Source of the DNA: Candidatus Omnitrophota bacterium | GTDB taxonomy: Bacteria > Omnitrophota > Gorgyraeia > VGKH01 | Assembly: GCA_022703055.1 (NCBI GenBank) | Contig: JAKLEP010000003.1 | Location: forward strand, 214,238 to 278,237 | Direction: 5' to 3' | DNA: 64,000 nt | Shown here: positions 4,227 through 52,076 of the stretch, piece by piece | Layout: every line of letters starts with the position of its first letter | Numbering within the stretch: the stretch's first letter is position 1 | The notes under the pieces: generated by a model | Told to the model about the DNA's origin: nothing | The model's database searches: none | Seen by the model: the letters and a program-made list of their open reading frames with translations, nothing else | Position numbers and translations under genes: made by a program

Positions 4227-5123
4227 TTATGCCAATAAAAATAATAAAATTGCCTTTTGGACGTGTAATCTATTTTCTGCCTGGTCAAAAACTATGGAGT
4301 TTTTGCTATCCATGACGTCAGATGAGACCTCTTCTCCCCGATGTGCCGGCAGACAATGCATAAATAAATAATTCTTTCTTGCCTTTGAAACTAATTTTCC
4401 ATTTATCTGGAAATCCTTAAAAATCCTTCTTCTTTCCTCAGCCTCTGATTCCTCTCCCATGCTCGCCCAGACATCAGTATAGATAACATCCGCCGACTCA
4501 ACAGCTTCATTAGGATTGTTGGATATATTTTTTAATGAGAACCCTGATTCTCTAACCACCTTTTTGTTCGGCTCATAGTCTTTGGGCGTGGCGACTTTCA
4601 AATCCACACCTAATTTTGCGCAGCCATACATCAAAGAATGACAGACATTATTTCCATCGCCGATATAAGCAAGCTTTATACCTTTGAGCTTCCCTAGCTT
4701 TTCTTTGATGGTAAACAAATCCGCCAAACCTTGGCAAGGATGAGAAAGATCGCTTAAGCCGTTTATCACCGGAATTTTAGAATACTTTGCCAGATCCAAG
4801 ACATCGCTGTGTTTAAAGGTTCTAGCTACGATTGCATCCAGGTATCTTGATAATGTTTTGGCGACATCCTCAACCGTTTCTCTTACCCCTAGATTGATTT
4901 CGCCAGGACCAAGATAAATGCAGTTTCCACCTAGTTGCCAAACTCCCACCTCAAAGGAAACCCGGGTTCTATTCGATGGCTTCTGAAATATCAGGGCAAC
5001 AGATTTGCCTTTAAGTTTATTGGCGTAAGCTGACTTATTCTTTTTGATCTTGGATGCCAGATCAAAAATACCTTCGATCTCTTTTGCTGATAAATCATTA
5101 ATACTAATTAGGTCTTTTTTCAT
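4227..5123 (-). CDS. argF: ornithine carbamoyltransferase
   Basis: 298 aa; carbamoyl-phosphate motif SNRTR, HPCQ and HCLP motifs of OTCase. Confidence 0.9.
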   Translation of the reverse strand: MKKDLISINDLSAKEIEGIFDLASKIKKNKSAYANKLKGKSVALIFQKPSNRTRVSFEVGVWQLGGNCIYLGPGEINLGVRETVEDVAKTLSRYLDAIVARTFKHSDVLDLAKYSKIPVINGLSDLSHPCQGLADLFTIKEKLGKLKGIKLAYIGDGNNVCHSLMYGCAKLGVDLKVATPKDYEPNKKVVRESGFSLKNISNNPNEAVESADVIYTDVWASMGEESEAEERRRIFKDFQINGKLVSKARKNYLFMHCLPAHRGEEVSSDVMDSKNSIVFDQAENRLHVQKAILLFLLA

Positions 5124-6307: not shown

Positions 6308-7161
6308 GGCGTGATTTCCGTTCCAATACCTTCGTTAGTAAAGATTTCAAGAAGCAAAGCATGCGGAACCTTGGCATCAATAATATGGGTCTTTTTAACC
6401 CCGCCTTCTACAGTATGCAGGCATGCCTTAAGCTTGGGAATCATCCCCTCCTGGATTACCTGTTCTTTAATTAATGACTTTGCTTCCTTGATATTTAAAG
6501 ACGAAATAAATGATTCATGATCTTCGATATTTCTCATGACCCCTTTAACATTGGTCAATAATACGAATTTTTCAGCTCCCAATGCGACTGCGATAGCCGA
6601 AGCTGCTTCGTCGGCATTTACATTATAAAGCTGTCTTTTGGCATCCTTAGCCATTGGGCAAACCACAGGAATATGCACTCCTTTTAATCTTTCCATAATT
6701 TTTGGTTTGTTAATCGCGGATATTTCTCCTACAAAACCTAAATCAACCTTGCCTTTTAGCTCTTTCTTTTTGGCTCTAATTACTTCTCCCGACGCATTGA
6801 GGCTGCCTGCGTCGCCTTTTAAAGCTTTTATTTCCTTGACGATCAAATGATTTAATTTGACCAGCTCCTCTGCCACGACTTTTAGCGTCTCGGCGTCAGT
6901 AACTCTTATGCCGTCGTGAAATTGAGCCGGTTTTCCTATTTGTTTCATGGCCTCGGTTATGCTCGGGCCGCCGCCGTGGACCAATACCGGTTTTATCCCC
7001 ACAAAACTCAAGAAAACTATATCTTCTAAAACGCTTTTGCGGATTTTCTCATCGCCCAAAATGCTTCCGCCGTATTTGATGACAAAAATCTTCTTGCGGA
7101 ATTCATGGATGTACGGAAGCGCCTCAATCAAAACATCGGCTTTTTTAATTATATCTTGCAT
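6304..7161 (-). CDS. argB: acetylglutamate kinase
   Basis: 285 aa; amino-acid-kinase family, VIKYGG and VHGGGP motifs; overlaps argD by 4 nt. Confidence 0.9.
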   Translation of the reverse strand: MQDIIKKADVLIEALPYIHEFRKKIFVIKYGGSILGDEKIRKSVLEDIVFLSFVGIKPVLVHGGGPSITEAMKQIGKPAQFHDGIRVTDAETLKVVAEELVKLNHLIVKEIKALKGDAGSLNASGEVIRAKKKELKGKVDLGFVGEISAINKPKIMERLKGVHIPVVCPMAKDAKRQLYNVNADEAASAIAVALGAEKFVLLTNVKGVMRNIEDHESFISSLNIKEAKSLIKEQVIQEGMIPKLKACLHTVEGGVKKTHIIDAKVPHALLLEIFTNEGIGTEITP

Positions 7162-14094: not shown

Positions 14095-14453
14095 CAATTT
14101 ACGGAAACAAGAGTGACGTAAATTGTCTGCGCGAATTGAACCCAGCCCTCTAAGCTATTCCGATAGCGAGATACGCAATCTCTGTCTTAGCGCCCGCCAG
14201 GCACTTCCATACATTTTAAGTTTTCGTTCTCTATCCCGAGCTTCTTTCTCGGTTTTATAAGCTTCGTAATAAATAAGTTCGATTTCTTTTGTCGCTTTAT
14301 GCTGTTTTAACCTTTGTTCTAAATTAGCAGTAAAACCAATGTAAGTTTTATTGCTGCCCTTTTCTTTCAGTAAATATACGTAATACATTGCGCGTAGAGG
14401 GCTGGGTCAAATTCAGCCATCAAACTTACGTTCACTATCGTTCCGTAAGTTTG
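14095..14453. mobile_element. GIY-YIG ORF cassette bounded by ~58-bp imperfect terminal inverted repeats, inserted between leuC and leuD
   Basis: Left flank 14095-14152 and reverse complement of right flank 14395-14453 align over their length. Each has an outer hairpin (caatttacg..cgtaaattg / caaacttacg..cgtaagtttg) plus an inner block gaattgaacccagccctcta / tagagggctgggtcaaattc. No transposase or target duplication seen. Confidence 0.4.
14155..14388 (-). CDS. GIY-YIG nuclease-family protein (short, 77 aa)
   Basis: MYYVYLLK...KTYIGFT...RL.QH...YYE.....EA..RE..LK: GIY / YIG / catalytic-Glu spacing of the UPF0213-type GIY-YIG domain. Confidence 0.75.
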   Translation of the reverse strand: MYYVYLLKEKGSNKTYIGFTANLEQRLKQHKATKEIELIYYEAYKTEKEARDRERKLKMYGSAWRALRQRLRISLSE

Positions 14454-44106: not shown

Positions 44107-44367
44107 TTAATCCTCCAAATTAACAATGGGGCTAATAATCTTACACAATTTTCTGCGCCCCGTTGTAGATTTGTAAAACTTTTCCTTCTGTCGGGCCTCG
44201 CTTAATGTTTCAAATGACTCGGTATAAATTAATTTGTAAGGACGATACGGACGCGACGATTTAACCTTACCAGCATTGTGCTCAGTTAAGCGTTTACCAA
44301 CATCTTCAGCCACGCCAGTATAAGTCTTTGTTTTTGCTTTGCTTAAAAGAACATAAACATGATGCAT
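44107..44367 (-). CDS. GIY-YIG nuclease-family protein (UPF0213-type, 86 aa)
   Basis: HHVYVLLS...KTYTGVA.D...RL.EHN.GK......YRPYKLIY.E.F....EA...E...K: full-length small GIY-YIG domain. Confidence 0.8.
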   Translation of the reverse strand: MHHVYVLLSKAKTKTYTGVAEDVGKRLTEHNAGKVKSSRPYRPYKLIYTESFETLSEARQKEKFYKSTTGRRKLCKIISPIVNLED

Positions 44368-44428
44368 AACTTCCTAACTTGTTGTTGGCGGACCCGCCTC
44401 GCCAGATTCTCTGGCGGGCGAGGTCTCG

Positions 44429-44464
44429 CCATTTTTGCCTGAGTTTAACTTGAGGCAAAAATGG
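44429..44464 (-). terminator. hairpin that base-pairs the 3' CCA of tRNA-Ser(GCT) with downstream sequence
   Basis: Plus-strand ccatttttgcct (44429-44440) / aggcaaaaatgg (44453-44464), 12-bp stem. On the minus strand it starts with the tRNA CCA. Confidence 0.4.
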
Positions 44465-44554
44465 CGGAGAGGCTGGGATTTGAACCCAGGGGCCCACTTT
44501 TGGCAGGCCAATCGCTTAGCAGGCGACTCCGTTCGGCCGCTCCGGCACCTCTCC
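44462..44554 (-). tRNA. tRNA-Ser(GCT), CCA encoded
   Basis: Hand fold: acceptor GGAGAGG/CCTCTCC, anticodon arm GTCGC-CTGCTAA-GCGAT, long variable arm, T arm CTGGG-TTCAAAT-CCCAG. Confidence 0.9.
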
Positions 44555-44585
44555 AAATTTCCCTTGCTTACTTGTATGAAATTTC

Positions 44586-44629
44586 GGATCCCGAGCCCGC
44601 CTTGAATTTTAATTCAGCGGCGAGGGATC
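44586..44629. repeat. structured repeat, copy A (GGATCCCGAG...CGAGGGATC)
   Basis: ggatcccgag-cccgccttgaattttaattcagcgg-cgagggatc; preceded by gaaatttc as in copy B; lies between the tadA stop and tRNA-Ser(GCT). Confidence 0.6.
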
Positions 44630-44638
44630 TCTATTTTG

Positions 44639-45115
44639 TCAATTGTTCTTGGCTGCTTCTATTTTCCGTTTCCTTTTAAAGAACTCGGTCAAGAGCTTGC
44701 CGCATTCTTCTTCTTGGATCCCTTTTTTAACGGCTATGCGATGATTAAGTTTTTTGTTGTTGGCGATTTCGATTACCGAACCGCAGGCTCCTGTCTTGGG
44801 ATCTTTGGCGCCAAAATAAATTTTCTTTACCCTGGATAAAACAAGCGCCCCCGCGCACATGCTGCAGGGCTCAATTGTCACATATAAAGAACAGTCGCTA
44901 AGCCACTTGGACCCGAGATAGTTTGTCGCTTCAGTGATGGCAATCATCTCTGCATGGGCAGTGGGATCTTTCAGTAGCTCGACTTGATTATGCGCCCTGG
45001 CAATGATCTTACCATTATAAACTACAACTGCTCCGACGGGAACTTCGTCATTCTTAAAAGCCTCTTTTGCTTCCTTTAAGGCTTCATTCATAAACAAAAT
45101 ATCAGTCTTAGACAT
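44639..45115 (-). CDS. tadA: tRNA-specific adenosine deaminase
   Basis: 158 aa; CDA zinc motifs HAEM and PCSMCAGAL; length and N-terminus typical of TadA. Confidence 0.9.
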   Translation of the reverse strand: MSKTDILFMNEALKEAKEAFKNDEVPVGAVVVYNGKIIARAHNQVELLKDPTAHAEMIAITEATNYLGSKWLSDCSLYVTIEPCSMCAGALVLSRVKKIYFGAKDPKTGACGSVIEIANNKKLNHRIAVKKGIQEEECGKLLTEFFKRKRKIEAAKNN

Positions 45116-45128
45116 AGATATTAAACAA

Positions 45129-45202
45129 TGCGCCTGACTGGATTTGAACCAGTAACGCCCAGCTCCGTAGGCTGGTGCTCTATCCAGTTGAGCTACAGGC
45201 GC
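45129..45202 (-). tRNA. tRNA-Arg(ACG), CCA not encoded
   Basis: Hand fold: acceptor GCGCCTG/CAGGCGC, D arm GCTC/GAGC, anticodon arm CCAGC-CTACGGA-GCTGG, T arm ACTGG-TTCAAAT-CCAGT. Confidence 0.9.
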
Positions 45203-45242
45203 AATATATTTTAAGAGACCTAAACTTCTGTTTTGTTAGAAC

Positions 45243-45364
45243 AACACCCAGCTCCGTCCCTCGCTCTTGCTCTTGACGGAATCCCGAGTTTCGCTCGGGA
45301 CGAAGTCCAACATGAAACGAGGGACTCCGTAGGCTGATGCTCTATCCAATTGAGCTATGGGCGC
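45243..45364 (-). pseudogene. decayed tRNA-Arg(ACG) copy (positions ~1-48 only) interrupted in the anticodon loop/stem by a 73-nt insert
   Basis: Minus strand GCGCCCATAGCTCAATTGGATAGAGCATCAGCCTACGGAG[insert]CTGGGTGTT matches the intact tRNA-Arg with ~6 substitutions. No T arm or 3' acceptor strand follows. Insert is flanked by direct repeat ACGGAG (plus-strand ctccgt at 45252-45257 and 45325-45330). Confidence 0.6.
45278..45326. repeat. structured repeat, copy C (diverged; inside the pseudo-tRNA insert)
   Basis: ggaatcccgag-tttcgctcgggacgaagtccaacatgaaa-cgagggactc; same end motifs as copies A and B with one inserted/changed base each. Confidence 0.4.
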
Positions 45365-45379
45365 AAAAAGAATTGATTT

Positions 45380-46741
45380 TTATGATTGTAAAATTTCCTC
45401 TCGCTTTAAGCCTAATTTGCTTAACGTTAGGGCTGGATCTTTGCTGTAGGCGCGACAAAATAAAGTAAGCTCTTTCATCGACCTGATGCCTCTTTCCTGC
45501 AAAGTACTTAGCACCTTAGAGCGCACCTTAACTTCTTCAATTATTTCTTTAGGGGACAGGCCTGAAGTCTTGGAAATCTTATCCCTGAATATGGTACTCG
45601 GAGACACCTGGTTGAACTTGTTTTGCTTATGATCGAAATTCCATATCTGAGAAAGCAGCACGGTCTTCTGCTCCATACCGCCTGTCTCGACTACTTCTTC
45701 TGCCACTCTATAGACTTTATCTTTGAAATTAAACCTTTTCATGACTATGAATACATCAACGAGGTTTACCAAAATCTCAGGTACGTTCATGGGTTCGTTT
45801 TGCAGACGGATTATTGCCTCCCTTGCCGAACTGGCATGTATCGTTCCGATGCAATGCTTTCCGATATTGACAACCGTCATTAGATCTTTTGCCTCAGCGC
45901 CTCTAACTTCTCCTACAATTACTCGGTCCGGACGCATTCTGAGGCTATTTTTTACCAAGGTTGTCATATCCATATTCTCGTCGCTTTCAAGACGAGAGCA
46001 ACTCTCTTCAAACTGGGTATTAAGCTCCAGCGTATCTTCAATGATAACCATTCTTTCGTTTTCTGGCACAAAACTAAAAAGCGCGTTAAGAAGGGTTGTC
46101 TTCCCGCAACCAGGGCCACCAGAAATTATGATATTTGCAGGCCTCACCGTTAAACCTTCAACGTAAAGCCAAAGCTGGGCTGCTAAATCGGTAGTAACAG
46201 TGCCTTTTTCAACAAGATCTATCATGCTCAGCGGCTCTGTTTTTGCTTTAGTGATGGTCAATTGCGGCCCTAGAGGAGAAACAATAATATTAACGCGGCC
46301 TTGTATATTCGGAAGCTCCATGTTATTAATCTTCTTTAATTCTGTTCTGCCGCAGAAAATAACTAATTTCTTTATAAAAATGTCTAGCTGCCTCTGAGTT
46401 TCAAAGCGATATTTTGTCTTCACCAAACCTTTTTGACAATGGTGGACATAAATCGGGTTTAAACTATTAATAATAATATCTTCTATATCCGGATCGCTCA
46501 AAAAATCCTGTATAACGTCATAACTTAAGAAATCTTTAACGAACTTTTTTCTCTCTTCTTCCGTCTCGAGCGCCTTTACTTCCTCTAAAATTAATTTTCT
46601 TTCCAGATGTCCACACACCTCATCCAACGCATCAGTAACAACCTGCTGCTTCTCTTTATCGGTCTGAAGAAGATTGAATCTGCCGATTAATTTTTCTATA
46701 ACCTTACTCTCTAAATCTTGAATGAATTCTTTTTCCTGCAT
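45380..46741 (-). CDS. type II/IV secretion-family ATPase (FlaI / CpaF / VirB11-like), orphan
   Basis: 453 aa; Walker A GGPGCGKTT, Asp box, Walker B RPDRVIVGEVRG, His box GTIHA; no cognate membrane platform gene nearby. Confidence 0.8.
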   Translation of the reverse strand: MQEKEFIQDLESKVIEKLIGRFNLLQTDKEKQQVVTDALDEVCGHLERKLILEEVKALETEEERKKFVKDFLSYDVIQDFLSDPDIEDIIINSLNPIYVHHCQKGLVKTKYRFETQRQLDIFIKKLVIFCGRTELKKINNMELPNIQGRVNIIVSPLGPQLTITKAKTEPLSMIDLVEKGTVTTDLAAQLWLYVEGLTVRPANIIISGGPGCGKTTLLNALFSFVPENERMVIIEDTLELNTQFEESCSRLESDENMDMTTLVKNSLRMRPDRVIVGEVRGAEAKDLMTVVNIGKHCIGTIHASSAREAIIRLQNEPMNVPEILVNLVDVFIVMKRFNFKDKVYRVAEEVVETGGMEQKTVLLSQIWNFDHKQNKFNQVSPSTIFRDKISKTSGLSPKEIIEEVKVRSKVLSTLQERGIRSMKELTLFCRAYSKDPALTLSKLGLKREEILQS

Positions 46742-47371: not shown

Positions 47372-47404
47372 GAAATTTCAATTTATCTTATTCTAGGAAA
47401 TTTC

Positions 47405-47445
47405 GGATCCCGAGTCCATCGAATTTCTATAATGGACGAGGGATC
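47405..47445. repeat. structured repeat, copy B (GGATCCCGAG...CGAGGGATC)
   Basis: ggatcccgag-tccatcgaatttctataatgga-cgagggatc; inner stem GTCCAT/ATGGAC differs from copy A but stays complementary. Confidence 0.6.
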
Positions 47446-47479
47446 TTTATTACGGCGCCGAAACACATTGTTTCGGCAT

Positions 47480-47513
47480 CCGCCACGTTTTTCAATAATT
47501 AAAAACGTGGCGG
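47480..47513 (-). terminator. hairpin that base-pairs the 3' end (CCGCCA) of tRNA-Ser(TGA) with downstream sequence
   Basis: ccgccacgttttt (47480-47492) / aaaaacgtggcgg (47501-47513), 13-bp perfect stem. A second hairpin gccgaaaca/tgtttcggc lies at 47457-47477. Confidence 0.4.
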
Positions 47514-50125: not shown

Positions 50126-51586
50126 CTATCCCTTTATGACACCAAGCGGCCGCATCCGACAGACGCGTTTGGAAATGCCGGCATTATGCACTACATCAAC
50201 AACATCATTTACATCTTTGTATGCCTGAGGAGCCTCTTCAGCTATTGTACCATGACCTGAGGCTTTGACAAAAATTCCTTTTGATTCTAAATCTTTTAAA
50301 AGCGCTCCTACATTGATGGTCTTGGTTGCTTCTGTACGGGATTTTAGCCTTCCTGCGCCATGGCAGGTGGAATAAAATGTCTCAGATGCTTTCTCGGTCC
50401 CAACGAGAAGATAAGAATTTCTCCCCATATCCCCGGGAATAATCACAGGCTGGCCGGTTTTCTGGAATCTTACCGGTAAATCCGGATGTCCCGGCGGAAA
50501 GGCGCGGGTTGCGCCTTTTCTGTGGACACAAAGAGTTTTCTCTTTGCCTTCGACTTTATGTTTTTCAAGTTTAGCGATATTATGAGCGACATCATAAATC
50601 AAATCCATGCCCATATCCTGCCAGCTTCTTTTAAATACCTTCTCGAAAGCCTTACGCGTAAGATACATCAGGCACTGACGATTTGCCCAGGCATAATTTG
50701 CCGCGCATCTCATGGCTGCAATATAACTCTGAGCTTCCGGAGAATTCACCGGCGCGCAGCCAAGCTGCCTATCAGGCACATTGATATTATATTTGGCCAA
50801 ACAATGAATCATGCTTTTTACATATTCATCGCAGACTTGATAACCCAGTCCACGAGAACCAGAGTGAATCATCACTGTGACCTGACCAAGAGTTAATCCG
50901 AAATAATCGCAGAGCTCAGCATCGTAGAGCTGGTCGATTACTTGAATCTCTAAAAAATGATTCCCTGAACCCAGTGTACCTGATTGCGCCTTGCCGCGTT
51001 CGTAGGCCCGCGGTGATACTGCCGAGGGATCAGCACCTGCAATTACCCCGTAATCTTCAGTAGCGTCCAGGTCATCTTTTACGCCGTAGCCTTTTTCCAC
51101 CGCCCACTTGGCACCTTTCGCCAGAATTTCTCTTTCTTCTCTTTCGCTTACGCGGATATCGCCTTTTGAACCGACTCCAGAAGGAACATCATTAAATAAA
51201 ACATAAACCAAATCCTTTATTTTATCTTTAATTTCATCAAGCTGAAAATTAGTTTTTAAGAGTCTGACTCCGCAATTGATATCGTATCCGACACCCGCTG
51301 GAGAAATCACTCCGTTATTTTCCGGATCGGTAGCCGCGACTCCTCCAATACAAAATCCGTAGCCCCAGTGAATATCCGGCATAGCCAAAGAATATCCAAC
51401 TATCCCGGGCAGGAATGCAACATTGGCAACTTGCTCAGCTGCTTTATCTTCACGGATATCTTTAAGCAGTTTCTCGTCGGCGTAAATAAGCCCAGGAACC
51501 CTCATACCTGCTTTGTAGGCTTTAGGAATACGAAAGCGGAACTCATCAACTTTTTCTAAAGGCCCCTGCCATGTATCAGACATCAA
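50126..51586 (-). CDS. rtcB: RNA 3'-phosphate ligase RtcB
   Basis: 486 aa; PD.H.GYG, GYDINCG, GSGNH, HSGSRG.G, and the catalytic His block in CHGAGR. Confidence 0.9.
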   Translation of the reverse strand: MMSDTWQGPLEKVDEFRFRIPKAYKAGMRVPGLIYADEKLLKDIREDKAAEQVANVAFLPGIVGYSLAMPDIHWGYGFCIGGVAATDPENNGVISPAGVGYDINCGVRLLKTNFQLDEIKDKIKDLVYVLFNDVPSGVGSKGDIRVSEREEREILAKGAKWAVEKGYGVKDDLDATEDYGVIAGADPSAVSPRAYERGKAQSGTLGSGNHFLEIQVIDQLYDAELCDYFGLTLGQVTVMIHSGSRGLGYQVCDEYVKSMIHCLAKYNINVPDRQLGCAPVNSPEAQSYIAAMRCAANYAWANRQCLMYLTRKAFEKVFKRSWQDMGMDLIYDVAHNIAKLEKHKVEGKEKTLCVHRKGATRAFPPGHPDLPVRFQKTGQPVIIPGDMGRNSYLLVGTEKASETFYSTCHGAGRLKSRTEATKTINVGALLKDLESKGIFVKASGHGTIAEEAPQAYKDVNDVVDVVHNAGISKRVCRMRPLGVIKG

Positions 51587-51995
51587 AAATCACCTGCGCC
51601 ACAAAACCATTATCTATTTTCTCTATCTTTAATTCGTGGTAGGTTGCGGCTTTTATCTCTGCTTTAATCTTGCAATTTTCTCGCGGACAACCAAAAATAA
51701 TAGCAACCAATCCAGTCTCGCTTAAAGTATCTATCTTAAATTCTTTAAAAAGCACCTCTTTGGCATCAAATAAAGAAAGCAGCTCATTCAGCCAATTAAC
51801 TAGAAGTTCTTCGCGATCTTGACCTTCTATTTTTATATCGAATTTATTTAATTTTATTGAATCGCAAGACTTGCATGGTTCGGCGATAATATCAAACATG
51901 GCTAAGGCAGCTTTGACAAAAATCTGCTTTAAATCGCTGCCAGAAACCCTTACGCCGATATCAGCGGTGTGCTCAATTAACTCGTAGTCTTTCAT
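51576..51995 (-). CDS. archease (RtcB activator)
   Basis: Start moved to ATG 51995 (MKDYELIEHTADIGVRV, the archease N-terminal signature). The track N-terminal extension is read through tRNA-Lys. Overlaps the rtcB start. Confidence 0.85.
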   Translation of the reverse strand: MKDYELIEHTADIGVRVSGSDLKQIFVKAALAMFDIIAEPCKSCDSIKLNKFDIKIEGQDREELLVNWLNELLSLFDAKEVLFKEFKIDTLSETGLVAIIFGCPRENCKIKAEIKAATYHELKIEKIDNGFVAQVIFDV

Positions 51996-52000
51996 AAAAA

Positions 52001-52076
52001 TGGTGAGCCGCGAAGGAATCGAACCTTCAACCCCCAGATTAAGAGTCTGATGCTCTACCAATTGAGCTAGCGGCCC
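52001..52076 (-). tRNA. tRNA-Lys(CTT), CCA encoded
   Basis: Hand fold: acceptor GGGCCGC/GCGGCTC, D arm GCTC/GAGC, anticodon arm TCAGA-CTCTTAA-TCTGG, T arm GAAGG-TTCGATT-CCTTC. Confidence 0.9.

Follow-up and report, generated by a model that had tools for sequence, protein, structure and literature searches.

Palindromic mini-elements that insert into genes include the MITEs, the REP/REPIN sequences and the Rickettsia palindromic elements. In E. coli operons, stable extragenic hairpins (REP stabilisers) shield the upstream mRNA from 3′ exonucleases. Further, mobile elements are known to leave partial tRNA copies next to complete ones when they integrate (PMC9897764). Protein-spliced archaeal and eukaryal tRNA introns, and split or permuted tRNAs, are marked by a bulge-helix-bulge (BHB) motif, EndA and RtcB (PMC4090602, PMC3978253).

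Here, we compare with these systems a locus in a 64-kb window of Candidatus Omnitrophota DNA (the window being the whole stretch that was analysed), where a broken tRNA-Arg(ACG) gene, interrupted by a hairpin, lies just upstream of an intact one. The searchable literature holds no report of nested tRNA genes, of the HP1 motif described below, or of tRNA introns tied to Omnitrophota. With a probability of roughly 0.55, we read the broken copy, hereafter the relic, as what is left, the 5′ two-thirds, of a formerly complete tRNA-Arg(ACG) that was disabled by a hairpin, replaced by way of a cassette, and now acts as a structured RNA leader.

A tRNA-Arg relic split by a hairpin

The relic, the working tRNA-Arg, tadA and all other genes around them are on the minus strand (Table 1), within the gene order archease-rtcB-...-serS-202aa-tRNA-Ser x2-89aa-tRNA-Ser-ATPase-[tRNA-Arg region]-tadA-tRNA-Ser-...-dnaX-recR. 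The ATPase is a 453 aa protein whose homologues are named CpaF/FlaI-type ATPases of Candidatus Omnitrophota, and tadA, which starts 12 nt downstream of the working tRNA, encodes a tRNA adenosine deaminase, the enzyme responsible for editing A34 in tRNA-Arg(ACG). No sigma-70-like promoter and no terminator was predicted in 45204-45380. Eleven related loci (L006, L008 to L010 and L053 to L059), fetched through the ATPase protein next to tRNA-Arg, were examined beside the locus of the window species (W); a metagenome scan for ATPase relatives returned three loci. Nine of these related lineages (L006, L008, L009, L010 and L053 to L057) share the core order between serS and recR, and the most distant pair, L058 and L059, retains only ATPase-tRNA-Arg-...-tadA. 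The locus of W is base-for-base identical in four independent assemblies (a 486-kb JGI contig, a second JGI metagenome and two NCBI MAGs) and is therefore no assembly artefact.

Read as 45364→45242, the relic copies positions 1-49 of the neighbouring tRNA-Arg(ACG) and is split by a hairpin insert. Its first 40 positions, GCGCCCATAGCTCAATTGGATAGAGCATCAGCCTACGGAG, differ from the intact gene at 4 positions and comprise the 5′ acceptor strand GCGCCCA, the D arm, the 5′ strand of the anticodon stem, and the anticodon loop CUACGGA with the following G. Beyond the insert, positions 40-49 read CTGGGTGTTG versus CTGGGCGTTA in the intact gene, with two differences. Past position 49, the similarity to the intact gene stops, and the T arm and 3′ acceptor strand are absent. 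A repeat search recovers the same pair of copies at a spacing of 162; relic and intact gene are separated by 40 nt, and the copies of the repeated segment lie 113 nt apart. A partial copy that lacks these parts just upstream of an intact tRNA-Arg had been described from the letters, and both the sequence and the repeat search agree with it. The relic is not called as a tRNA by ARAGORN (standard settings, intron mode or relaxed threshold) or by the Rfam tRNA model at E<=10. With the insert removed in silico, the relic still lacks a T loop and ARAGORN still calls nothing. A working tRNA cannot be made from it.

The 67-nt insert and one copy of ACGGAG together form a 73-nt unit in the anticodon loop, the two ACGGAG copies lying 73 nt apart from start to start, as had been noted. 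Because ACGGAG is repeated, the insertion point is ambiguous, anywhere from 33/34 to 39/40. The insert has an outer stem, GUCCCUCGUUU/GAGCGAGGGAC, and an inner hairpin, GUCCCGAG-CGAAA-CUCGGGAU; the 7-nt inverted ends (TCCCTCG/CGAGGGA) and the inner TCCCGAG-CGAAA-CTCGGGA that had been pointed out are both present, and the terminal inverted repeats can be extended to an 11-bp stem with G·U pairs. A 163-nt stretch folds at -56.3 kcal/mol (z = -3.6), and the insert with short flanks adopts a rod fold of about -43 kcal/mol.

Table 1. Features of the tRNA-Arg region and of the related hairpins in the window, with reading direction in brackets where given.
Feature	Position	Strand	Basis
HP1, tRNA-Ser(GCT) leader, HP2 next	44585..44631	-	R1 54.8 bits
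tadA	44639..45115	-	Pfam MafB19-deam, dCMP_cyt_deam_1
Working tRNA-Arg(ACG), acceptor GCGCCUG/CAGGCGC	45128..45203 (45203→45128)	-	ARAGORN; Rfam tRNA 65.8 bits
Spacer and leader of working tRNA	45204..45241	-	Alignment with L006, L010
Relic positions 40-49 (3′ anticodon-stem strand, variable loop, G49)	45242..45251 (45251→45242)	-	Alignment to intact gene, L006, L010
Second ACGGAG (tRNA positions 34-39)	45252..45257 (45257→45252)	-	Sequence
Hairpin insert, 67 nt, TCCCTCG...CGAGGG	45258..45324 (45324→45258)	-	Sequence and fold
HP1-like part of insert, GAG-UCCC/UC/GUUUC...GAAAC/UC/GGGAuUC	45277..45327	-	R1 20.8 bits, full model length
Relic tRNA-Arg(ACG) positions 1-40	45325..45364 (45364→45325)	-	42-nt direct repeat, 90% identical to intact gene; 93-97% to L006/L010 relics
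CpaF/FlaI-like T2SSE ATPase	45380..46741	-	Pfam T2SSE; Omnitrophota homologues
HP1, tRNA-Ser(CGA) leader	47404..47447	-	R1 57.5 bits

Nesting of the intact gene and patchy distribution

Two relatives carry the same insert in a more complete arrangement. In L010 and L006, the order is the outer 5′ part, the insert, GTTG, TCCCGAC(AAAC), a leader, a complete inner tRNA-Arg with the acceptor GCGCCUG/CAGGCGC, a trailer, (GTTTG)TCGGGA, and C-TGGGCGCA. The last of these fits the outer GCGCCYA exactly, being its complementary 3′ acceptor strand with the discriminator; in both relatives it lies downstream of the intact gene, which therefore sits nested within the broken one and takes the place of the outer gene's T arm. 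A perfect inverted repeat of up to 11 bp, TCCCGACAAAC...GTTTGTCGGGA, surrounds the inner gene in L006 and L010. The working tRNA-Arg of W is the inner gene of this arrangement, and W lacks the trailer of about 50 nt and the 3′ relic (…GTTTGTCGGGACTGGGCGCA) that L006 and L010 carry before tadA. The left arm of the inverted repeat, TCCCGA, is intact where its partner exists (L006 and L010); in W, where the partner is gone, it reads TTCTAA with half its bases changed, and the 5′ end of the spacer, TTCTAAC, is accordingly the decayed form of TCCCGAC. This arm is a small natural experiment of its own, kept with its partner and changed without it, and points in the same direction as the sequence conservation described below.

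The plain relatives suggest which copy is the older. Both L008 and L009 have a single plain tRNA-Arg(ACG) with the acceptor GCGCCCA/TGGGCGC, which is of the relic's type and unlike that of the working gene of W; the plain gene and the broken copy thus have the acceptor stem in common, and the broken copy was probably there first, with the intact copy as its replacement. We infer this assignment, and the order of events proposed below, from four acceptor-stem positions and the two nested relatives. The relic is probably not a decayed duplicate that lost its 3′ half, as the sequence-only reading had it: its acceptor matches that of the plain gene, and in L006 and L010 its 3′ strand sits beyond the intact gene.

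The five-gene tree groups W with L006 and L010 with L009 (both at 100% bootstrap) and L008 with L053 (86-88%), with L054 to L056 and L057 on the other side. The relic and its hairpin are present in W, L006 and L010 and absent from L008 and L009. In L057, which the deepest split of the sampled lineages separates from these, a truncated form retains this junction, CAGCCTACGGAG followed by TCCCTC...CGTCCCGAGC, and L053 has a reduced form, GCGCCTA followed by TCCCT...CGGGATTGCCGCA. In L054 to L056 and L058, one to three GC-rich hairpins lie between acceptor-like strands (GCGCCTG...CTGGCGCA) beside tRNA-Arg. L009 and L010 make a clean pair: the two are close (their serS proteins are 93% identical) and their flanks are homologous up to both tRNA ends, with L010 a filled site and its sister L009 the uninterrupted, empty site. 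The allele is therefore patchy, and at least one lateral move or replacement, whose end points fall inside the tRNA gene, has taken place. The two also differ at tRNA-Ser(CGA), which is nested in L010 and plain in L009, and the stem that brackets the nested tRNA-Ser(CGA) shows a compensatory change between L010 and L054 (CCCCACACCAAAA/TTTTGGTGTGGGG versus CCCCGCACCAAAA/TTTTGGTGCGGGG). Other small elements with inverted ends occur in or beside tRNA genes of the relatives.

The layout itself could be produced by tandem triplication followed by deletions. More broadly, local tandem duplication or triplication with deletions, with the hairpins grown in place and no foreign or mobile DNA, would accommodate the tandem arrays of partial units in the relatives (three 42-nt units in L056, and several acceptor-bracketed hairpins at the tRNA-Arg locus in L055 and L058), as well as L057, whose relic and working gene are of a single acceptor type. 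However, such a history requires four compensating substitutions in the acceptor stem of the working gene while the relics stayed ancestral, and it explains neither why a perfect inverted repeat of 11 bp encloses the inner gene nor the empty site of L009, whose flanks match those of its sister to the tRNA ends. We consider a purely local origin unlikely.

Conservation, the HP1 family and copy number

Although the partial copy had been called decayed, its sequence is conserved like that of a working tRNA. Across W, L006 and L010, four-fold synonymous sites of the ATPase and tadA genes are 32-51% identical, and thus essentially saturated, whereas identities are 88-92% for the 73-nt insert, 93-97% for the 5′ part of the relic and 91-95% for the working tRNA. 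The 40-nt spacer is 65-77% identical, close to the baseline for unrelated AT-rich sequence (56-60% for unrelated upstream DNA aligned alike). The insert differs from the synonymous sites with Fisher p values of 4e-10 to 1e-16, and from the spacer with 8e-4 and 3e-3 in the two distant pairs. Relic and insert are therefore not decaying. Lateral spread of the allele could explain part of the low divergence; however, conservation varies from one part of the module to another, which speaks for selection in addition to any recent transfer.

The insert is also related to a hairpin family found on tRNA-Ser transcripts. The window has 3 loci with the motif TCCCTCG-N15-45-CTCGGGA, versus 0.02 expected. 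The family, HP1, has the form GAUCYC-UCG-[variable GC stem]-CUC-GRGAUC, with a 6-bp basal stem (GAUCYC/GRGAUC), tandem U·C/C·U mismatches, a G-C pair and an inner stem. It lies upstream of several tRNA-Ser genes in W, L006, L009, L054 and L057, 30-40 nt from the tRNA and followed by a second stem, HP2, which pairs with the first bases (G1G2) of the tRNA-Ser. In an alignment of eight copies, 97.7% of cells are paired, 5/11 pairs show compensatory changes, and the covariation score is reached by 0/500 shuffles; the pairs that are not Watson-Crick are G·U, and are so only in the tRNA-sense orientation. At the gathering score, and at E<=10 over 44400-46000, Rfam 15 has no match for the relic, the insert or HP1.

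A covariance model trained on the eight tRNA-Ser leader hairpins only (R1) was searched on both strands of 187 kb, made up of the window and the relatives' sequences, for which E-values are rough. Its best matches outside the training set are the three orthologous inserts, each aligned along the entire model (20.8-24.3 bits, E about 1e-3 to 1e-4), which confirms the kinship with the repeats upstream of tRNA-Ser genes that the sequence-only reading had proposed; for the insert of W, E is 1e-3 in the 187 kb and 1.9e-5 in 3.4 kb. The match covers the 5′ two-thirds of the hairpin and overlaps nucleotides 37-39 of the relic's anticodon loop, so that loop nucleotides form part of the basal stem. The rod fold is 9-17 kcal/mol more stable than this HP1-like fold. 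The insert lacks the usual setting of the family: its host is a tRNA-Arg relic, the working tRNA is about 75 nt away, and HP2 is missing. Within the 73-nt insert there is no covariation: the stems are invariant in the three copies and changes fall in loops and bulges only, so the argument for a function at the RNA level is one of conservation.

Copy number bears on whether the insert is a mobile element. A covariance model of the whole 73-nt unit (R2) finds the three orthologous copies in 187 kb; neither the rest of the window nor the relatives' sequence, about 120 kb, yields another. An exact scan for the inner hairpin in 185,579 species genomes gave 39 matches, one of which is the L006 contig at the orthologous site. 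At least 33 of the remaining matches lie in an A/T-rich frame (about 26 are labelled Flavobacterium or relatives) and resemble bidirectional terminators, AAAAAA-TCCCGAGCAAAACTCGGGA-TTTTT; the few others have unrelated flanks. In the window, the relatives' sequence and these species genomes, no copy is thus found beyond the orthologous site. Two other identities of the sequence were considered and rejected. As a hidden small gene, the insert is a 25-codon ORF in tRNA sense in W, and in L010 there is no start codon and the frame differs. As for a viral origin, scans of IMG/VR were negative for any link: the HP1 pattern has 18 matches, about chance level and none near a tRNA; the junction 15-mer has 13, with an unrelated tRNA gene at four loci and no tRNA-Arg(ACG); and the 3′ end of the working tRNA has two, both phage tRNA-Met.

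These counts weigh on the explanation first put forward from the letters, in which a tandem tRNA-Arg duplicate was hit by a MITE (with ACGGAG as target-site duplication and TCCCTCG/CGAGGGA as ends), lost its 3′ half and has been drifting as a pseudogene. The part of it that stands is real: the terminal inverted repeats, the 6-nt direct repeat, and the filled and empty sites of L010 and its sister; the inverted-end elements at other tRNA genes of the relatives would also be in keeping with it. The direct repeat could equally be structural, since the left ACGGAG is also within the basal stem of the HP1-like fold. The part that fails is dispersal. With no second copy in the 64-kb window, the relatives' sequence or the species genomes, the insert is unlike a typical multi-copy MITE. 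Moreover, an insert that is conserved like a working tRNA across saturated lineages is not drifting, and a 3′ strand that in L006 and L010 follows the intact gene means nesting, not the remains of a simple duplicate. Overall, the MITE and pseudogene explanation appears quite unlikely to us.

Proposed history and comparison with known systems

Two further explanations are essentially excluded for W. The outer gene might be a functional disrupted tRNA, with its inserts removed from the RNA and its exons joined by the RtcB-archease ligase encoded 5 kb upstream. The archease-rtcB pair is indeed upstream of the cluster in most relatives whose fetched flank extends there, all four insertions in outer genes fall in cloverleaf loops (the L006 relic having two further insertions, in the D loop and the anticodon loop), and the ambiguous insertion range includes the canonical 37/38 intron position. 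However, W lacks the T arm and 3′ acceptor strand that splicing would have to join, and no T loop can be reconstituted in L006 or L010, where ARAGORN rejects every in-silico spliced form of the outer gene and accepts the plain gene of L009. No BHB was found by hand, the junction being an internal loop of 7 x 3 nt with no 4-bp central helix, and of the proteins of such a splicing system RtcB and archease are the ones seen among the genes called around the locus. There is likewise no Rfam match to a group I intron or ribozyme at E<=10, and at 67 nt the insert is far from a core of ~200 nt or longer. Splicing is very improbable. Least credible of all is an att-type scar, in which the partial tRNA is an attL or attR remnant of an integrated element with the ATPase among its cargo: a partial beside a complete tRNA is the classic signature of integration (PMC9897764), but the copies are 113 nt apart with only the hairpin and spacer between them, no integrase is among the called genes within about 10 kb on each side, and the 5′ acceptor strand of the relic mismatches the 3′ strand of the working gene at two positions, while the supposedly orphan ATPase precedes both copies and keeps its place in 11/11 related loci, relic present or absent and including those with a single plain tRNA, and is therefore a resident gene and not element cargo, which refutes that version outright.

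For the observed anatomy, nesting, family relation, conservation and patchy distribution, we favour the reading of a disabled and replaced tRNA gene. A 73-nt HP1-related hairpin module would have disabled the resident tRNA-Arg from within its anticodon loop, and a segment bounded by inverted repeats, carrying a complete second tRNA-Arg(ACG), would have replaced the T arm of the outer gene. The second tRNA-Arg would be the one now in use, 40 nt downstream of the relic. In the window species, the 3′ relic would later have been deleted, after which the orphaned left arm of the repeat would have decayed. The relic and its hairpin are under purifying selection, and may persist as a stable structured leader in an ATPase-tRNA-Arg-tadA transcript. 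In particular, the rod might act as a barrier to 3′ exonucleases or as the signal for a processing site ahead of the working tRNA, and a factor that reads HP1 in tRNA-Ser leaders may read the HP1-like hairpin here too. Judged from conservation, the present role is probably that of a structured leader or processing element. Any function of the relic is dispensable, because L009 lives without the relic and L006 tolerates further insertions in its loops. A role as a TadA decoy, with CCUACGGAG kept just upstream of tadA, was considered and rejected, because the anticodon loop is not a conserved requirement: it is interrupted by an 80-nt insertion after CCUAC in L006, and L053 to L056 and L058 keep acceptor-like strands only.

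A wider generalisation is doubtful but can be stated. In Omnitrophota, cassettes may exist in which a tRNA gene bracketed by inverted repeats enters the same resident tRNA gene, disables it and substitutes its own copy, with the host relic and HP1-type hairpins kept as a selected RNA scaffold or processing signal, and with spread between lineages. Such a cassette may be a self-compensating tRNA-gene parasite that uses tRNA sequence as its landing site; its instances would be the tRNA-Arg locus of W, L006 and L010 and the tRNA-Ser(CGA) loci of L010 and L054. For a phylum as little known as this one, the locus raises the prospect that small cassettes carrying their own copy may replace tRNA genes from within. 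HP1 is itself an undescribed, covariation-supported hairpin motif on tRNA transcripts that is absent from Rfam 15. Either cassette replacement or the motif would bear on the processing of tRNA operons in Omnitrophota and on the annotation of tRNA fragments; if the relic is merely tolerated, it is an instructive but ordinary pseudogene.

Among the known systems, the disrupted tRNAs of Archaea are similar in having inserts in cloverleaf loops, including a position compatible with 37/38, and an RtcB-archease pair is encoded nearby. The resemblance is only superficial: the host here is bacterial, there is no BHB, and neither a T loop nor, in W, a 3′ acceptor strand can be recovered.

The palindromic mini-elements share with the insert a short hairpin unit with inverted ends and a short direct repeat, a location inside an RNA gene, and presence/absence polymorphism. 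Unlike them, the relic insert is a single orthologous copy with no transposase or RAYT identified, and its HP1 kin are confined to tRNA-Ser leaders and covary in the manner of RNA. The REP stabilisers offer a functional analogy only, in that a GC-rich rod lies within AT-rich intergenic DNA, with a protein gene on one side and a would-be RNase P site on the other. The relic hairpin differs from them in being embedded in a tRNA relic and in carrying the conserved HP1 motif instead of a generic palindrome.

A further comparison is with integration scars (PMC9897764), where the fragment likewise shares a direct repeat of ~42-48 nt with a nearby complete isoacceptor and is likewise missed by gene finders. 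Partial tRNA genes are usually dismissed as such scars of prophages or islands. Here, in contrast, no element, integrase or island lies between the copies, and the 3′ end of the relic is found beyond the complete gene in relatives, so that the scar does not flank the working gene but surrounds it, and the relic is conserved like a tRNA, as if functional.

Hairpin leaders and trailers of the tRNA-Ser genes

In the window, and in L006, L009, L054 and L057 among the related Omnitrophota loci fetched through the CpaF/FlaI-like ATPase next to tRNA-Arg (L006, L009, L010 and L053-L058), tRNA-Ser genes are preceded by a conserved leader of two successive hairpins, here named HP1 and HP2. HP1 has the form GAUCYC-UCG-[variable stem]-CUC-GRGAUC and shows compensatory changes. 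HP2 has the form CCGAAAUUUC...GAAAUUUCGG, whose final bases are G1G2 of the tRNA, and keeps its complementarity though its length and sequence differ from locus to locus. Both leader copies of L009 have an identical inner stem and both copies of L006 are near-identical; in contrast, the two copies in the window differ from each other. The sister genomes L009 and L010 are not alike in which of their orthologous tRNAs carry the leader. It has no entry in Rfam.

Downstream, in the tRNA-Ser trailers, the tRNA 3′ end recurs in inverted orientation, CCA included (...UCUCCGCCA-loop-UGGCGAGA...), and the tRNA 3′ end therefore sits inside a long hairpin. Most of these trailers carry a second direct UCCGCCA copy after the inverted one.

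Positions of the features in the window and in the L-numbered loci
Feature	Locus	Positions	Strand or remark
Two-hairpin tRNA-Ser leader	window	44555-44631	(-)
Two-hairpin tRNA-Ser leader	window	47372-47447	(-)
Two-hairpin tRNA-Ser leader	L006	3729-3793 and 7250-7320	
Two-hairpin tRNA-Ser leader	L009	4129-4196 and 6940-7019	
Two-hairpin tRNA-Ser leader	L054	3876-3946	
Two-hairpin tRNA-Ser leader	L057	3952-4035	
tRNA-Ser trailer with inverted 3′-end copy	window	44380-44461	(-)
tRNA-Ser trailer with inverted 3′-end copy	window	47480-47507	(-)
tRNA-Ser trailer with inverted 3′-end copy	L006	4073-4146 and 4880-4945	
tRNA-Ser trailer with inverted 3′-end copy	L009	4421-4467	
Nested tRNA-Ser(CGA)	L010	4149-4530	
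Nested tRNA-Ser(CGA)	L054	about 4395-4560	
Broken tRNA-Ser(TGA) 5′ part upstream of complete gene	L006	3794-4072	
Broken tRNA-Ser(TGA) 5′ part upstream of complete gene	L057	4027-4285	
tRNA-Lys(CTT), archease, rtcB	window	50126-52076	(-)
tRNA-Arg(ACG)-tadA gap	window	45116-45127	(-); equivalent point in L009, L010, L053
GIY-YIG nuclease ORF	window	44107-44367	(-)
GIY-YIG nuclease ORF	window	about 14150-14330	(-)
GIY-YIG nuclease ORF	L006	1-142	
GIY-YIG nuclease ORF	L058	8647-8916	
ATPase region	L003	3989-5348	two ORFs, 133 + 315 aa
ATPase region	L004	9-950	single 313-aa ORF; locus start falls within gene
tRNA-3′-end element	L006	4249-4385	
tRNA-3′-end element	L054	after 4699 and after 7180	
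tRNA-3′-end element	L055	after 4076	
tRNA-3′-end element	L058	after 197 and 6632-6830	
Acceptor-bracketed GC-rich hairpins	L056	6392-6517	
Acceptor-bracketed GC-rich hairpins	L055	6370-6545	
Acceptor-bracketed GC-rich hairpins	L054	6364-6480	
Acceptor-bracketed GC-rich hairpins	L058	6382-6525 and 6632-6830	

Protein genes around the tRNA cluster

The tRNA-Arg(ACG) gene encodes the substrate of the adjoining tadA product, and its 3′ end lies 7-12 nt from the tadA start in four loci (the window, L009, L010 and L053), where no Shine-Dalgarno sequence is visible before tadA. If the transcript were cut at the tRNA 3′ end, the tadA mRNA would be almost leaderless. In the window, the gene for archease, the cofactor of the RNA 3′-phosphate ligase RtcB, begins at most 5 nt past tRNA-Lys(CTT) and is followed by rtcB; in most relatives, rtcB lies upstream of the serS/tRNA cluster, accompanied by archease wherever the fetched flank extends that far. 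The RtcB-archease pair has no evident substrate.

Of the four assemblies of the window's species, two have the ATPase gene as a single 453-aa ORF; in the other two (L003 and L004) it is not called in one piece, owing to a frameshift polymorphism or else to an error in assembly. Stand-alone ORFs for small GIY-YIG nucleases (about 86-89 aa) are found repeatedly in the vicinity of the tRNA clusters; their position varies from genome to genome, and no consistent link was found with the tRNA loci that hold a relic or hairpin insert.

tRNA remains and small elements at tRNA ends

The relatives hold further tRNA genes that are nested in, or preceded by, tRNA remains. In L010 and L054, the remains of another tRNA-Ser enclose a complete tRNA-Ser(CGA), bracketed by a 13-bp inverted repeat that shows a compensatory change between the two genomes. 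A broken tRNA-Ser(TGA) 5′ part, which carries hairpin inserts, lies directly upstream of the complete gene in L006 and L057.

A second family of small elements, with no member in the window, occurs at tRNAs without an encoded CCA and begins precisely at the nucleotide that follows the discriminator base. The element opens with TTCTNCTNCGC-[hairpin]-CTTCGNAGNAAC... and, in the copies followed through to their end (L006, L055 and L058), closes by repeating the tRNA 3′ end, as in ...GAAGGAGA-CCCAGCCTCTCCGCCA. The family resembles elements that target the 3′ ends of tRNAs, or else scars left by integration.

Finally, in L054-L056 and L058, tRNA-Arg(ACG) is adjoined by one to three tandem GC-rich hairpins between tRNA-Arg acceptor-like strands (GCGCCTG...CTGGCGCA), in which 6:67 is a U·U mismatch in every case. 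In shape, these bracketed hairpins are similar to acceptor/T-arm minihelices.
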